Positions 13,562 to 20,591 of a stretch of DNA of 32,020 bases are shown in pieces. The position numbers were made by a program, and so were the translations under genes. The notes under the pieces were generated by a model. The model saw nothing but the letters and a program-made list of their open reading frames with translations, was not told where the DNA came from and did no database searches. The stretch covers positions 1-32,020 of the forward strand of contig JBBTTL010000005.1 of assembly GCA_038064275.1 (NCBI GenBank), read 5' to 3'. Origin of the DNA: Patescibacteria group bacterium. GTDB taxonomy: Bacteria > Patescibacteriota > Minisyncoccia > Phycocordibacterales > VMEP01. Each line of letters starts with the position of its first letter. The stretch's first letter is position 1.

Positions 13562-15139
13562 ATGATTAACCGCTTATTGCGCGAAGAAATAGAGAAAACG
13601 CTCAATGTGATTTTTCCGAGCGTTGAGGCGGAAGGGGTTACTGTTTCATCTTTGCGTCAGTTTGGCGACTATACCACGAACGCGGCTATGGTTGTTTCCG
13701 CCCGCGTTGGAAAGACGGCAAAAGAGACAGCCAAAAGTATCGTAGCCCAACTGGACAAGAGCGAAGAAACAAAAAAACGTATTTTAAAAATGGAAATAGC
13801 CGGCCCTGGCTTTATAAATTTTTTTCTCAAAAACGAAGTAATTGTTTCCGAACTGGAAGAAATTGGCGAGAAAGCAAAAAAAGGTTTTGGTTTTCGCAAA
13901 GGAGAGAAAATAAACATTGAACCGTCATCCGCCAATCCGACTGGCCAGTTTCACATTGGGCACGGCAGGGGGGCATTTTATGGCGATACCCTTGCCAACA
14001 TTCTTGAATTTACAGGCGGCGACTTGACTCGCGAATACTACATCAACGACTCGCGCGAGAGCAACCAAATCAAAGAGCTCGGCAAAACGACACTCGGGCA
14101 GGGAGAAACATATCTTACCGAAAAATTAAAAACGCAAATCGCAAGACTTAAAACAGAATCGCAGGATATAGGCGTTGTCGGGTTTTTACTTGCCCGAATC
14201 GTACAAAGCGATAACCGGGAATTTATAGAAAAAAAACTGGGAATCCGCTTTGATATTTGGTATTCGGAAGACGAAAAATTGCGGGCGACGCTTTTAAACG
14301 ACCGAACGTTAGCGGCGCTTAAAATGAAAGAGCTTGTGTATGAGAAAGACGGCGCAGTATGGCTTAAAACTTCCGAATATGGAGACGATGAGGATAGGGT
14401 AATAATCAGAAGCGACGAATCAAAAACTTATTTTCTCTCCGATATTTCTTATCACGGCGATAAGTTCGCTCGCGGGTACGATGTGGTGATAGATGTTTTT
14501 GGAGCCGACCATCACGGGCACGTCAAAAGAATGATGGCGGCAAAAAAAATGCTCGGCTGGAAAGGCGATCTTAAAATTTTTGTCGCGCAAATGGTTTCTC
14601 TTAAGGAAAATGGCGTTTCGGCAAAAATGTCCAAGCGCGCCGGCAATGTGGTTTTGCTTAAAGATTTGGTGGATGAATTTGGCCTTGACGTGGTGCGTTG
14701 GTTTTATAATGAAAAAGCGCTCTCAACGCAAATGGAGTTTGACATGGCTCTGGCCAAAGAACATTCGGCAAAAAACCCGGTTTTTTACGTACAGTACGCC
14801 CACGCGCGCATGAATTCTATTCTTGAAAAAGCAAAAAGCGTTTCCGGTGATAACGTATCTATTGAGGCGATACTCAAAGAGCCGTCGGCCAAAAACCTGG
14901 CCCTTAAAATTTTGCAATTTGCGGAAGTGTTGGAAGAGATCGCTAATGATTATCAAGCGCACCGGCTGACTACCTACGCCTATGAACTGGCAAGCGCCTT
15001 TTCCGCTTTTTATCGGGACGTGCAGGTGGTGGGCGAAGGGTCGTATAACACCGGCGCCCTGGCCACGATAAATATCACCAAGATAACACTAGCAAAATGC
15101 CTTTCCCTTTTGGGCATATCCGCACCGGAGAAGATGTAA
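13562..15139 (+). CDS. argS: arginine--tRNA ligase
   Basis: 525 aa. ANPTGQFHIGHGR (HIGH), MSKRAG (KMSKS-like), C-terminal anticodon-binding region. Confidence 0.95.
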   Translation: MINRLLREEIEKTLNVIFPSVEAEGVTVSSLRQFGDYTTNAAMVVSARVGKTAKETAKSIVAQLDKSEETKKRILKMEIAGPGFINFFLKNEVIVSELEEIGEKAKKGFGFRKGEKINIEPSSANPTGQFHIGHGRGAFYGDTLANILEFTGGDLTREYYINDSRESNQIKELGKTTLGQGETYLTEKLKTQIARLKTESQDIGVVGFLLARIVQSDNREFIEKKLGIRFDIWYSEDEKLRATLLNDRTLAALKMKELVYEKDGAVWLKTSEYGDDEDRVIIRSDESKTYFLSDISYHGDKFARGYDVVIDVFGADHHGHVKRMMAAKKMLGWKGDLKIFVAQMVSLKENGVSAKMSKRAGNVVLLKDLVDEFGLDVVRWFYNEKALSTQMEFDMALAKEHSAKNPVFYVQYAHARMNSILEKAKSVSGDNVSIEAILKEPSAKNLALKILQFAEVLEEIANDYQAHRLTTYAYELASAFSAFYRDVQVVGEGSYNTGALATINITKITLAKCLSLLGISAPEKM

Positions 15140-15224
15140 AGACCCGGAATTAAACAGAACGGACGCGGACCGGCGCAGAAAAATATTTGGTTAATTTTTT
15201 CGTTGGTTTTACGAATACGTAAAA

Positions 15225-15291
15225 ACCAAAAATCCACGTGGAATCAATCCGTGACGGCCCCCGTAGATTGATTCCATGTGGATTTTTTGGT
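15225..15291. other. long (about 25 bp) stem-loop after argS
   Basis: accaaaaatccacgtggaatcaatc-(16-nt loop)-gattgattccatgtggattttttggt, with one G-U pair and one bulge. Confidence 0.7.
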
Positions 15292-15431
15292 CAATAAAGG
15301 TTCCTCGGGGCGGGGCCTGTAAAGAAGGGGGCCGGGTAGTTGCGGTTTTGGGGCGAGATTGATAGCCTTACCTAAGATAATGTTCAGACGGAAGGTGTTT
15401 ATGACTACTGTTACAAATATTAATTACAAAT

Positions 15432-15638
15432 ATGCGCTTTGTGGCGAGAAGTTTGGAAGATGCCTACGGGGTATTATTCAGAATAAAATTCCCGATTCTT
15501 ATCTATCCATACCACTCCCTTAATCTAAATTACCACGGTGTTGTGGTCGAAAATGTCAGCGAACTTAAAAAGCATTTTGCCGGTGTTCAGAAGAAGAGTG
15601 CAGTAAATGCCGTGGTCATAGATAAAATCAAAGAATGA
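15432..15638 (+). CDS. hypothetical small protein (68 aa)
   Basis: ORF ends 3 nt before an intrinsic terminator (15642-15680). No motif recognised. It could instead be part of an ileS leader. Confidence 0.3.
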   Translation: MRFVARSLEDAYGVLFRIKFPILIYPYHSLNLNYHGVVVENVSELKKHFAGVQKKSAVNAVVIDKIKE

Positions 15639-15641
15639 TTG

Positions 15642-15680
15642 ATCCGCTGGGCAATTGTTTGTCAGCGGATTTTCTTTTTT
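15642..15680 (+). terminator. intrinsic terminator 45 nt upstream of the ileS ATG
   Basis: atccgctg-(13 nt)-cagcggat followed by tttctttttt. Confidence 0.7.
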
Positions 15681-15724
15681 GCTTGAACGACAAAAAACGG
15701 ATAAGATAAGGGCACTATCCATAT

Positions 15725-18700
15725 ATGAATAATCCTCTAGATAACAAAAAGTCTAAAGTGACGGAGAGAGAAGAAGAGGTTCTCAAATATTGGCGGGACA
15801 GGAAAATTTTTGAAAAAACTCTCAACCAAACAAAAAAGGGCAAGCCTTTCGTATTTTACGACGGGCCGCCTTTCGCCACCGGTCTGCCGCATTATGGTCA
15901 CATTCTTACAGGCACCATCAAAGACGTTATTCCGCGATACCAAACGATGCGCGGGCGGTATGTCAGGCGCGAGTGGGGCTGGGACTGTCACGGATTACCG
16001 CTTGAAAATATTATTGAGCAAGAACTTGACCTCAAGCACAAAAAAGACATTGAAGAGTTCGGCGTTGGAAAATTTAATTCTGCCGCGGCAAAAGCAGTTC
16101 TGCGCTACGAAGCCGACTGGAAAGAAACAATTCCCAAAACTGGGCGTTTTGTGGATATGGACAATCCTTACAAGACTATGGATTCCAAATATACCGAATC
16201 GGTCTGGTGGTCTTTCAAAACACTCTACGACAAAAAACTTATTTACGAGGGCTACAAGATAATGTTGATTTGCCCGCGCTGTGAGACATCGCTTGCCCAG
16301 AGCGAGGTTGCGGGAAGCTATCAAGATGTCACGGATATTTCGGTTACCGTGAAATTTGAACTCACTAGTTCGCTCGATACCGATATACCCGCCCGACTTC
16401 GCTTGGACGAAGTCCAGGCGGACGGGCGAATGAACGCGAACGATACGAATAGTACGAATGGAGAAAAAATATTTTTATTGGCATGGACCACGACACCGTG
16501 GACCTTGCCCGGCAACACTGCGATTGCGGTGAATCCTAATATTGAATACGCGCTCATTGAAAGCAAAGAAAACGATGAATCTAAAAATGGCAAATTTATT
16601 GTTGCCAAAGAAAGAATTGAATTTTTGAAGATAAAACACTCCCTAATTAAAACAATAAAAGGGAAAGAATTAGTCGGCAAGACGTATAAACCGCTTTTTG
16701 ATTACTACGCCAAGACCGATATAAAAAATAAAGAGAACGCTCGCCCGACCCGTCCGAACGGATCATCCGGGCGGACTGAACACGACGAGTCGTTCGGGCG
16801 GGGATGGAAGATATACGCCGGAGATTTCGTTACCACCGAGACCGGTACGGGTATTGTGCATATCGCCCCGGCGTTCGGCGAAGACGATATGAATTTGCGC
16901 AACCAGTTCAATCTGCCGTTTATCCAACATGTCGGAATGGACGGCAGAATGAAAGATGAGATGTCCCATTTCCGCGGGCTTTACGTAAAACAAAAAGGCG
17001 ATACCCAATCCACCGACATTGAAATAATAAAACACTTGGCGCGCGAGGGACTGTTGTTCGCCAAAGAAAAAATCGTCCACCCCTATCCGCTCTGCTGGCG
17101 TTGCGACACACCCCTTTTAAATTACGCCACCTCGTCGTGGTTCGTCAAAGTTACGGCCATCAAAAAAAAGCTAATCAAAGAAAATAAAAAAATCACCTGG
17201 GTTCCTTCGCACATAAAAGAAGGGCGTTTCGGCAAGTGGCTCGAAGGTGCCAAAGACTGGGCCATATCGCGAACGCGCTTCTGGGGCGCGCCACTTCCGG
17301 TCTGGCGCTGTGATTCTTGTAAAAAAATAAAAGTAATAGGCGGGCTTAAAGAGCTCAAAGAGGGCAGGTCCGCTAATAATTCTTATATAGCAATGCGCCA
17401 CGGGCAGTCGAAGAGCAATGTCTACGGCGTTAACGATTCTTTCGGAGACCCTGAAAATCATTTGACCGAAAAAGGAAGGGAAGAAGTCGCCTATTCTCTA
17501 AAAGCGCTTTCTAAAAAAGGGATTACGCGCATTGTCTCTTCCCCCCTTATTCGGGCCAAAGAAAGCGCGGAAATTGTGGCGGAAAAATTGGGAATCCCCA
17601 TTGAAAAAATAGAAGTGGATAAAAGATTCATTGAATTTAATCACAGTACCGAATGTCAAGGCAAAAAAGCGGGGTTTCCTGAAACCGACCCGTCGGAAAG
17701 AGAGGATTTTTATCTGCGCCACAAAGACGGAGAGAATCATGACGATGTGCGCGCCCGGGTGATGGAAGGACTATTTGATCTTGAGAAAAAATATAAAGGC
17801 GAAACCATATTGATTGTTACACACGGCTCTCCGATGTGGATGCTTATTTCAGGCGCGGTACACTTAAGCGACAAAGAAACCCTTAAATATCGCGAGGATA
17901 GAAAAAAAGACAAAGGCCCCTATTTCATTTCAAACGCCGAGGTAAAGCCGCTTAACTTTACCTTCTTTCCGCACAACAGTCGCTTCACACTTGATTTTCA
18001 TCGCCCATATATAGACGAAGTTGAGTTTCCTTGTTCTTGTGGCGGCGCCATGGAGCGTATAAAAGACGTGTTTGATTGCTGGTTTGAGTCCGGCTCAATG
18101 CCCTACGGGCAACTTCACTATCCTTTTGAAAATAAGAAATTGTTTAAGGAAAATTTCCCGGCTGATTTTATCGCCGAAGGACTGGACCAGACGCGGGGAT
18201 GGTTTTATAGCATGCTGGTATTAAGCGTGGCACTTTTCGGAAAAACACCTTACCGACGGGTGATTGTGAACGGGCTTATCCTAGCAGAAGACGGCCAGAA
18301 AATATCCAAGCGTCTCAAGAATTATTCGGATGTGGCGGAGGTGATTGAAAAATACGGCGCTGATTCTCTTCGCTATTATCTTTTGTCATCGCCGGTAGTG
18401 CGCGGCGAGGATGTCGCTTTTTCCGAAAAGGGGGTGGCGGAAATCGGGAGAAAAATAATTTCACGGCTGGATAATGTTTATGTTTTTTACGAAACCTACG
18501 CCCATGAATTGAAAAGCGAGAAAAGCGTTGCTAAAACTAAAAATATTTTAGACCAATGGATACTGGCGCGTTTGGGCGAACTTCGTCAGGATATTACTTC
18601 CGGCATGGATAAATATGAACTTGATACAGCCACCCGGGGCATTGATAAGTTTATTGACGATTTATCTACATGGTATTTGCGCCGCTCCCGCGAGCGTTTC

Positions 18701-20003: not shown

Positions 20004-20591
20004 ATGTCCCACCATCTCTATCAAACCGAAGGAATAGTGCTCGGAAGCGCCAATATCGGCGAGTCAAATCGTTATTACCATATTTTCACCAAAGACCTGG
20101 GGCTGGTAATGGCCTTTGCCCAGGGAGTGCGCGAACTTAAATCAAAACTGCGCTACCACCTTCAAGATTTTTCGTATCTTTCGCTTGACCTCATTCGCGG
20201 GAAAGATACCTGGCGGGTGACTAGCGCCGACACTGGCGCTAGTTTTGAAAATATTTTTCGTGATAAAGAAAAACTGGCCCTTTTTGCCGCCGTGGCCCAA
20301 TTTCTGAAACGACTCCTTCATGGGGAGGAAAGAAATGAGCCATTGTTTGACGCTCTCACTTTGGGACTTCATTTTTTAGAGAAGGAGACGTTTTCCAAAG
20401 ACGAGCTTAAAAACTTTGAACTTTTAATAGTGGCGAAAATTCTACACATTCTCGGCTATTGGGGCGGCAATGGAGAAACTAAAGCGCTTCTAGAATCAAA
20501 ACTTGATAAGGATGTGCTGGAAAAAGTAACGGCTCTCCGCCCAACAATTCTTGGCGAGGTAAACCGCGCCTTGACCGAGAGCCAACTTTGA
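20004..20591 (+). CDS. recO: DNA repair protein RecO
   Basis: 195 aa. N-terminal OB-fold pattern YQTEGIVLGSANIGESNRYYHIFTKDLGLV typical of compact RecO. Confidence 0.78.
   Translation: MSHHLYQTEGIVLGSANIGESNRYYHIFTKDLGLVMAFAQGVRELKSKLRYHLQDFSYLSLDLIRGKDTWRVTSADTGASFENIFRDKEKLALFAAVAQFLKRLLHGEERNEPLFDALTLGLHFLEKETFSKDELKNFELLIVAKILHILGYWGGNGETKALLESKLDKDVLEKVTALRPTILGEVNRALTESQL

Follow-up and report, generated by a model that had tools for sequence, protein, structure and literature searches.

A predicted histidine phosphatase domain within the isoleucyl-tRNA synthetase of Patescibacteria and on other tRNA-related enzymes

The ileS Locus and Its Product

The window analyzed here is a stretch of 32,020 nucleotides (contig JBBTTL010000005.1, GenBank assembly GCA_038064275.1) from a member of the Patescibacteria, an ultra-small bacterium of groundwater. 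It contains ileS, which encodes an isoleucyl-tRNA synthetase (IleRS) of 1214 aa whose catalytic core is interrupted by a predicted histidine phosphatase domain, and it is this insert that we describe (table 1). The open reading frame (ORF) is a single continuous frame with no internal stops, and the motifs and codon positions quoted in an earlier account made from the letters alone (the sequence-only reading) were all found where it placed them. The protein scores 876.1 bits against the ileS model TIGR00392 (cut-off 621.4), in two stretches parted by the insert, and its Pfam matches comprise PF00133 (also in two stretches), PF08264, PF19302 at aa 1036–1214, and PF00300. An AlphaFold2 (AF2) model of aa 15–1214, built with 119 homologs, has a mean predicted local distance difference test score (pLDDT) of 90.2 and a predicted template modeling score (pTM) of 0.85. 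Assignment to the type-2 class is supported by the C-terminal PF19302 domain and by Foldseek comparisons, in which type-2 and eukaryotic IleRS (8c8v, 8wnd, 1ile) give template modeling scores (TMt) of 0.79–0.88 and root mean square deviations of 3.9–6.6, versus a poorer 0.69–0.77 and 8.1–11.6 for type-1 IleRS. By these sequence and structural matches we assign the gene product as the type-2 IleRS of this organism, with charging itself as its putative function. Two specialized families were considered and rejected. The mupirocin-resistance enzymes MupA and MupB, with a cut-off of 1900 bits, match at 701 and 697 bits, reflecting only general type-2 homology, and the model of IleRS with a GNAT domain (NF040702) matches at 315 bits against 1999, with no GNAT match in Pfam.

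Table 1. Coordinates of ileS, its motifs and phosphatase insert, and of the compared argS–recO loci (window positions unless a contig is named).
Feature	Residues	Position	Strand	Basis or remark
ileS, type-2 isoleucyl-tRNA synthetase carrying the insert	1214 aa	15725..19369	+	ORF, Pfam, NCBIfam, AF2 model
HIGH signature, HYGH	56-59	15890..15901	+	Sequence reading; H56, G58, H59 invariant and Y57 nearly so in alignment of 119 homologs
CP1 editing motif WTTTPWT	254-260	16484-16504	+	Sequence reading; conserved in homolog alignment
CP1 editing motif GTGIVHIAPAFGEDD	374-388	16844-16888	+	Sequence reading; conserved in homolog alignment
First Cys pair of CP3 zinc knuckle (WRCDSCKK), just 5' of insert	C529, C532	17309..17320	+	At least 90% of 119 homologs
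Inserted module: predicted histidine phosphatase core plus return segment of ~36 aa	550-755	17372..17989	+	Replaces 8c8u linker; Pfam; model; dN/dS
PF00300 His_Phos_1 core	556-719	17390..17881	+	Pfam; Foldseek neighbors
RHG motif with predicted nucleophile H559	R558, H559, G560	17396..17404	+	R and H in 313/313 domains; aligned to PhoE RHG
Second phosphate-pocket Arg (predicted)	R610	17552..17554	+	319/319 domains
Predicted general acid/proton donor (RFIEF)	E637	17633..17635	+	297 Glu and 14 Asp of 317 domains; aligned to Glu of PhoE LREI
Second phosphate-pocket His (predicted), codon CAC	H700	17822..17824	+	312/315 domains
Second Cys pair of CP3 zinc knuckle (FPCSCGG), just 3' of insert	C770, C772	18032..18040	+	At least 90% of homologs
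DQTRGWFY		18185-18208	+	Sequence reading
KMSKS signature, KISKR	859-863	18299..18313	+	Sequence reading; K859 and K862 invariant in homolog alignment
argS		13562-15139		Window neighbor
recO		20004-20591		Window neighbor; separated from argS by ileS and a GDSL lipase gene
argS-HisPhos fusion, P0241		8001-10070 of L091/L092		recO directly next; ileS absent between argS and recO

Identity and Placement of the Insert

In an alignment with the closest solved IleRS, IleRS2 of Priestia megaterium (8c8u), residues 546 and 755 of the window protein correspond to residues 476 and 485 of the 8c8u chain, leaving about 200 residues in place of about 8, in agreement with the boundaries that the sequence-only reading had drawn. 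Both flanks carry a cysteine pair of the zinc knuckle of connective peptide 3 (CP3), a region in which a zinc motif has been reported for the Thermus thermophilus IleRS (PMC7191050). Because the two pairs flank the insert on both sides, we interpret the phosphatase as an excursion from the zinc-knuckle loop, inserted between the pairs, upstream of the KMSKS signature, where the Rossmann fold is in its second half. The AF2 model is confident over the insert (pLDDT of 86–97 in the full-length model and 87.7 when the insert is modeled alone).

The nesting of PF00300 in the synthetase, anticipated in the sequence-only reading, is seen in the Pfam match of the whole protein (E = 1.2e-28; 100.6 bits, threshold 21.7), which lies between the two PF00133 stretches; the isolated insert matches the same family at E = 7.4e-30 (104.5 bits; threshold 21.7). 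Foldseek searches with the model of the insert alone return 6s2q, 4ij5, and 1h2e (GpgP, PspA, and PhoE) with TM scores of 0.72–0.76. The nearest folds overall, all within this TM range, are the small phosphatases GpgP Rv2419c, PspA, PhoE, a riboflavin-pathway phosphatase (HFP), Rv3214, and CobC, with phosphoglycerate mutases ranking lower. The sequence match to PhoE (E = 1.7e-10) brings the R, H, R, E, and H of the active site into register. On sequence and modeled structure, we assign the insert as a predicted complete branch-1 histidine phosphatase domain resembling PhoE, GpgP, and PspA. The insert falls short of every curated NCBIfam equivalog cut-off: cofactor-dependent phosphoglycerate mutase (NF038349, 68.9 versus 225; TIGR01258, 21.7 versus 81.7; NF002339, 33 versus 316), α-ribazole phosphatase CobC (TIGR03162, 59.3 versus 162.9), phosphoserine phosphatase PspA (NF045917, 56.2 versus 350), and SixA (TIGR00249, 32.7 versus 74.5) were each rejected.

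Catalytic Residues and Selection

Conservation of individual residues was counted over 322 aligned domains, tandem copies included. The sequence-only reading had listed every catalytic position as present, and this holds; it had, however, taken the glutamate of DGENHDD (E670) as the catalytic one, and the alignment to PhoE points instead to E637 as the predicted proton donor. E670 is itself kept in 313 of 316 domains, and R678 in 314 of 317. Copies in tandem arrays nearly all retain the full catalytic set. The exceptions are the second domain of P0264, in which the glutamate is replaced by alanine and the second histidine by asparagine, and the first domain of P0270, which lacks only the glutamate.

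Ratios of nonsynonymous to synonymous substitution (dN/dS) were calculated by the Nei–Gojobori method with two relatives that are 85% and 71% identical. For the closer relative, dN/dS is 0.116 in the insert, whereas the core on its two sides has 0.109 and 0.093; for the more distant one, the insert value is 0.090. Purifying selection on the insert is thus, in these codon comparisons, as strong as that on the synthetase core. The ratios, together with a Pfam scan in which no other family passed its threshold in the insert, accord with the earlier view of a functional type of domain that is neither decaying nor an intein.

Two low-complexity loops lie in the editing region in CP1, at 16388–16465 (aa 222–247, PARLRLDEVQADGRMNANDTNSTNGE) and at 16736–16798 (aa 338–358, NARPTRPNGSSGRTEHDESFG). 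AF2 confidence is low in both, with a pLDDT below 50 for the first and about 49 (block mean) for the second. The relative that is 85% identical (L008, 1166 aa) apparently lacks both: only 498 of the 549 codons of its N-terminal core align with the window gene, and blastn at gene level breaks its alignment close to each loop. A relative of 1382 aa (P0254) has a NUDIX domain at the site of the first, disordered loop, which therefore looks like a second insertion hot spot. The gap between argS and ileS spans 585 nt (15140–15724), and related contigs (e.g., L003) have an ORF of 68 aa called there. An Rfam scan of the window gave no leader or T-box above threshold upstream of ileS, and a promoter and terminator scan of the window performed at chance level.

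Distribution of the Insert among IleRS

The 120 best full-length matches to the window protein (52–100% identity, 1144–1325 aa) all combine PF00300 with the IleRS domains, and their source names are those of Patescibacteria or Parcubacteria, including Lloydbacteria, Yonathbacteria, Wolfebacteria, Paceibacterota, and Minisyncoccota. An exhaustive search with the insert gave 4970 protein matches at E ≤ 1e-3, of which 324 reach E ≤ 1e-10; most of the top 150 are either of IleRS length, with the domain at about aa 490–710, or fragments of IleRS, or stand-alone proteins of 185–205 aa. A word-indexed search with the insert only had given the impression that it was unique to this protein, and the full-length and exhaustive searches overturned that impression.

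We then scored 80 GTDB species loci, drawn from the matches listed and representing a sample and not a census, with a custom hidden Markov model of the insert. The insert is present in 21, as a single copy in 18 and as a double copy in 3, and is lacking in the other 59. Among the matches listed, the single-copy loci are labelled Minisyncoccia, Nomurabacteria, Wolfebacteria, Paceibacteria, and Yanofskybacteria; the three IleRS with two tandem copies are labelled Peregrinibacteria or Peribacteria; and the insert-free loci include Moraniibacteriota, Falkowbacteria, Uhrbacteria, Magasanikiibacteriota, and all listed type-2 IleRS from outside the Patescibacteria. As judged from this sequence distribution, the insert is a standard, inherited, and conserved part of IleRS architecture in a large clade of Patescibacteria (Paceibacteria/Parcubacteria), and hundreds of database entries with this architecture already bear an automatic PF00300 match.

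Insert-bearing IleRS of the Patescibacteria type were also encountered in metagenome-assembled genomes labelled Spirochaetia, Gammaproteobacteria, and Saccharibacteria (L013, L016, L019, L021, L022, L024, and L025). These labels probably reflect mis-binning or loose naming, not a true occurrence beyond Paceibacteria-like lineages. Further accretions occur on individual IleRS. P0175 has a second phosphatase copy at a site corresponding to about residue 926 of the window protein, before the anticodon-binding domain. P0102 (1325 aa) combines a GNAT acetyltransferase in CP1 (at about aa 279) with the CP3 phosphatase, and in P0254 the NUDIX hydrolase in CP1 likewise accompanies a CP3 phosphatase. 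P0014 is a stand-alone protein joining a histidine phosphatase to a NUDIX domain.

The Same Module on Other Enzymes

The domain is found on three enzymes other than IleRS. Fusions to valyl-tRNA synthetase (ValRS) have two copies in P0270 (1538 aa; 849 bits to valS) and in P0264 and four in P0150. The valS profile breaks at about 431–439, which equates to about residue 433 of the T. thermophilus ValRS and about residue 760 of the window protein, that is, to the homologous loop. The tandem copies are orthologous across the three proteins, and their duplication is therefore likely to be old. Fusions to arginyl-tRNA synthetase (ArgRS) place the phosphatase at the C-terminus and fall into three clusters (P0241, P0300, and P0301). 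The gene order of the 70-kb contigs that encode P0241, argS-HisPhos followed by recO, can be set beside that of the window, in which ileS lies between argS and recO; the comparison suggests that the argS–recO locus kept the phosphatase when it lost ileS. The last partner is TsaC/Sua5, the threonylcarbamoyl-AMP synthase, which has a C-terminal phosphatase in a single representative of 387 aa (P0197). Its phosphatase opens with the consensus of the IleRS inserts, SGNKYFLMRH, and is 49% identical to one of them.

Among the closest ~300 relatives of the insert, we found no partners outside the tRNA- or adenylate-related enzymes (IleRS, ValRS, ArgRS, and TsaC) and NUDIX. Sequence placement indicates that the module has been put in place independently several times, with the ValRS loop, the second site in IleRS, the C-terminus of ArgRS, and TsaC as the apparent separate events.

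Proposed Role and Alternatives

Based on the choice of fusion partners and the conservation of the active site, we lean toward the hypothesis that the insert works as a phosphohydrolase attached to enzymes that form adenylates and charge tRNA, and that its substrate would be a phosphate-bearing molecule generated or handled there. By the known chemistry of PF00300, R558, R610, and H700 would hold the phosphate and H559 would attack it, giving a phospho-histidine intermediate; the leaving group would take up a proton from E637, and water would then free the phosphate from the histidine. Each of the four partners (IleRS, ValRS, ArgRS, and TsaC) spends ATP on making an acyl-adenylate, with release of pyrophosphate (PPi) and then AMP, and each serves tRNA. 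Given this shared adenylate chemistry and shared role, we posit that the substrate is one handled at such enzymes. The candidates would be a nucleotide by-product of the AMP or PPi type or a phosphorylated tRNA acceptor end, and by analogy among the partners a substrate of this kind seems more likely than an unrelated metabolite. The sequence-only reading had proposed hydrolysis of a phosphate on a tRNA end or nucleotide, or a regulatory module; the set of fusion partners makes a tie to tRNA or adenylate chemistry plausible.

Several observations weigh against this proposal. Many close homologs are stand-alone proteins, and attachment to a synthetase is thus not required for the enzyme to work. 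The phosphatase fused to ArgRS is closest to stand-alone phosphatases and not to the IleRS inserts. A metagenome scan recovered only IleRS inserts and stand-alone phosphatases, with no further TsaC fusions. Among distant relatives the insert evolves faster than the core (~35–40% versus ~53% identity), and its specificity may therefore not be uniform. Finally, fusion to housekeeping genes may reflect mere co-expression in tiny genomes.

The main rival is one that we regard as possible and on the whole unlikely: a hitch-hiking small-molecule phosphatase, unrelated to tRNA charging and acting, for instance, on phosphoserine, a sugar phosphate, or a cofactor, would have been captured in a permissive surface loop of an essential, constitutively expressed gene of a streamlined genome. 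The nearest folds are indeed those of metabolic phosphatases (GpgP, PspA, PhoE, the riboflavin-pathway HFP, and CobC), and close stand-alone versions of 190–205 aa exist in similar organisms. The acceptance of GNAT and NUDIX domains by CP1 of related IleRS indicates that unrelated inserts are tolerated, and the locus of L091 keeps the domain without ileS, so that its value does not depend on IleRS. However, the restriction of multi-domain partners to tRNA or adenylate enzymes and NUDIX among the closest relatives argues against it, and the independent placements, together with arrays of two to four copies bearing catalytic residues, are hard to explain by co-expression alone.

A more specific version of the tethered phosphohydrolase, and one that we hold to be a long shot, is repair of tRNA ends, in which the phosphatase would strip a 3'-(pyro)phosphate or a similar block from the CCA end at the charging enzyme and so provide these epibiotic bacteria with built-in resistance to toxins that target tRNA. 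Toxins of the toxSAS type pyrophosphorylate the CCA end of tRNA and block charging (10.1101/2021.04.30.441581; PMC11559606), which makes the idea concrete. If it were true, the recurrence on IleRS, ValRS, and ArgRS would amount to a distributed tRNA-healing system or to the nucleus of a bacterial multi-synthetase assembly.

We consider it similarly improbable that the insert is primarily a structural or scaffolding module of the phosphoglycerate mutase-like fold, serving dimerization, tRNA binding, or the sensing of a phosphorylated ligand (e.g., by linking IleRS, ValRS, and ArgRS in a multi-synthetase assembly) with catalysis secondary. Many branch-1 members are obligate dimers or tetramers, the same domain recurs on several synthetases and in tandem arrays, and the pTM of the full-length model suggests a defined packing of the domain on the enzyme. 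Against such a role stands the nearly perfect retention of the five catalytic residues over the 322 domains, with the glutamate lost only in the two ValRS-borne copies named above; because the catalytic residues are conserved, a purely structural role is unlikely.

The insert might also be an assembly chimera, an intein, or a recent mobile-element insertion. At least eight contigs from independent samples and assemblers, Hainich groundwater assemblies among them, encode exactly this protein of 1214 aa, and the DNA of the gene is 100% identical at the six loci compared, all from independent short-read assemblies. Within the insert, a Pfam search at E ≤ 0.01 found no intein or transposase domain (only PF00300 and a sub-threshold tRNA_Me_trans match), and its GC content of 0.43–0.46 does not differ from that of the remainder of the gene. 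The same locus occurs on an error-rich contig of 78.9 kb (L001; ERZ1286166 contig_1820), where ileS is colinear and 99.1% identical with 22 small indels. Nearly every gene of that contig is frameshifted by small indels; it resembles a long-read assembly left unpolished and gives rise to spurious short database proteins. One of these (P0002, 129 aa), which spans the C-terminal junction, was considered as a truncated variant and rejected as a frameshift fragment. That fragment is the only hint in favor of an artifact, and it derives from a contig otherwise colinear with the gene; with the identical assemblies (which dispose of the chimera that the sequence-only reading had wished to see excluded), the Pfam and compositional results, retention of the insert down to 52% host-protein identity, and a dN/dS of ~0.1, we rule out an artifact or selfish insertion with near certainty.

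Significance and Comparison with Known Systems

Few enzymes are known to be as conserved as aminoacyl-tRNA synthetases. Those of bacteria seldom gain new catalytic domains, and most rarely of all within the Rossmann fold. What is unusual here is that the accessory domain is a hydrolase with an intact active site, as predicted, that it lies inside the catalytic domain, and that it recurs on several synthetases. A full-text literature search found no paper describing an aminoacyl-tRNA synthetase with a histidine phosphatase domain. This agrees with the earlier statement that no such enzyme is known to have been described, whereas the notion of a singular oddity gives way to a clade-wide architecture that is shared with ValRS, ArgRS, and, once, TsaC. 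Automatic Pfam matches make the architecture visible in databases, yet it is uncharacterized, and domain accretion in the IleRS of Patescibacteria is partly recognized, given the existence of the NCBI model NF040702. There is also a bearing on annotation, since the label of these proteins in NCBI records is often no more than "class I tRNA ligase family protein."

An entire radiation of bacteria that are ultra-small and depend on hosts has retained a phosphatase domain in its IleRS, with the module also placed repeatedly on ValRS, on ArgRS, and possibly on TsaC. This points to an unrecognized step of phosphate removal, tied in these organisms of minimal metabolism to the charging of tRNA or to adenylate chemistry. 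Its substrate could reveal a new quality-control or tRNA-repair activity, a route for disposal of by-products, or a bacterial synthetase complex.

The host enzyme is closest to the type-2 IleRS of P. megaterium (IleRS2; 8C8U/8C8V) and T. thermophilus (1ILE), with homology over the full length (689–709 bits; TMt 0.79–0.88). They share the HIGH and KMSKS signatures, the CP1 editing domain, the cysteines of the CP3 zinc knuckle, and PF19302; the solved enzymes have ~8–10 residues where the window protein has an enzyme domain of 206 residues. To our knowledge, no IleRS with a phosphatase has been solved or described. The insert shares its fold with PhoE (1H2E/1EBB), GpgP Rv2419c (4PZ9), and PspA (4IJ5), which are compact (~165–200 aa) and lack the long insertions of mutases. 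Those enzymes are free-standing and act on defined or broad sets of small molecules, whereas the window domain is embedded in a synthetase.

Among fusions, the IleRS with a GNAT domain (ileS_w_GNAT, NF040702) provide a precedent for a foreign enzyme domain in IleRS, but that domain is an acetyltransferase, and in P0102 it occupies the other site, CP1. Among NCBIfam models, the insert scores highest (73 bits versus a cut-off of 326) with the bifunctional RNase H/acid phosphatase NF005567 (PRK07238, the mycobacterial Rv2228c type), in which a CobC/PhoE-like phosphatase is joined end to end to RNase H, likewise an enzyme of nucleic acids, and is not inserted in a synthetase. Class Ia synthetases also have lineage-specific modules, such as the leucine-specific domain near the KMSKS signature of leucyl-tRNA synthetase, and eukaryotic synthetases have appended domains. 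These are grafts on the second half of the Rossmann fold or on the termini and bind tRNA or protein without being enzymes; unlike them, the graft in the window IleRS is a hydrolase with an intact predicted active site.

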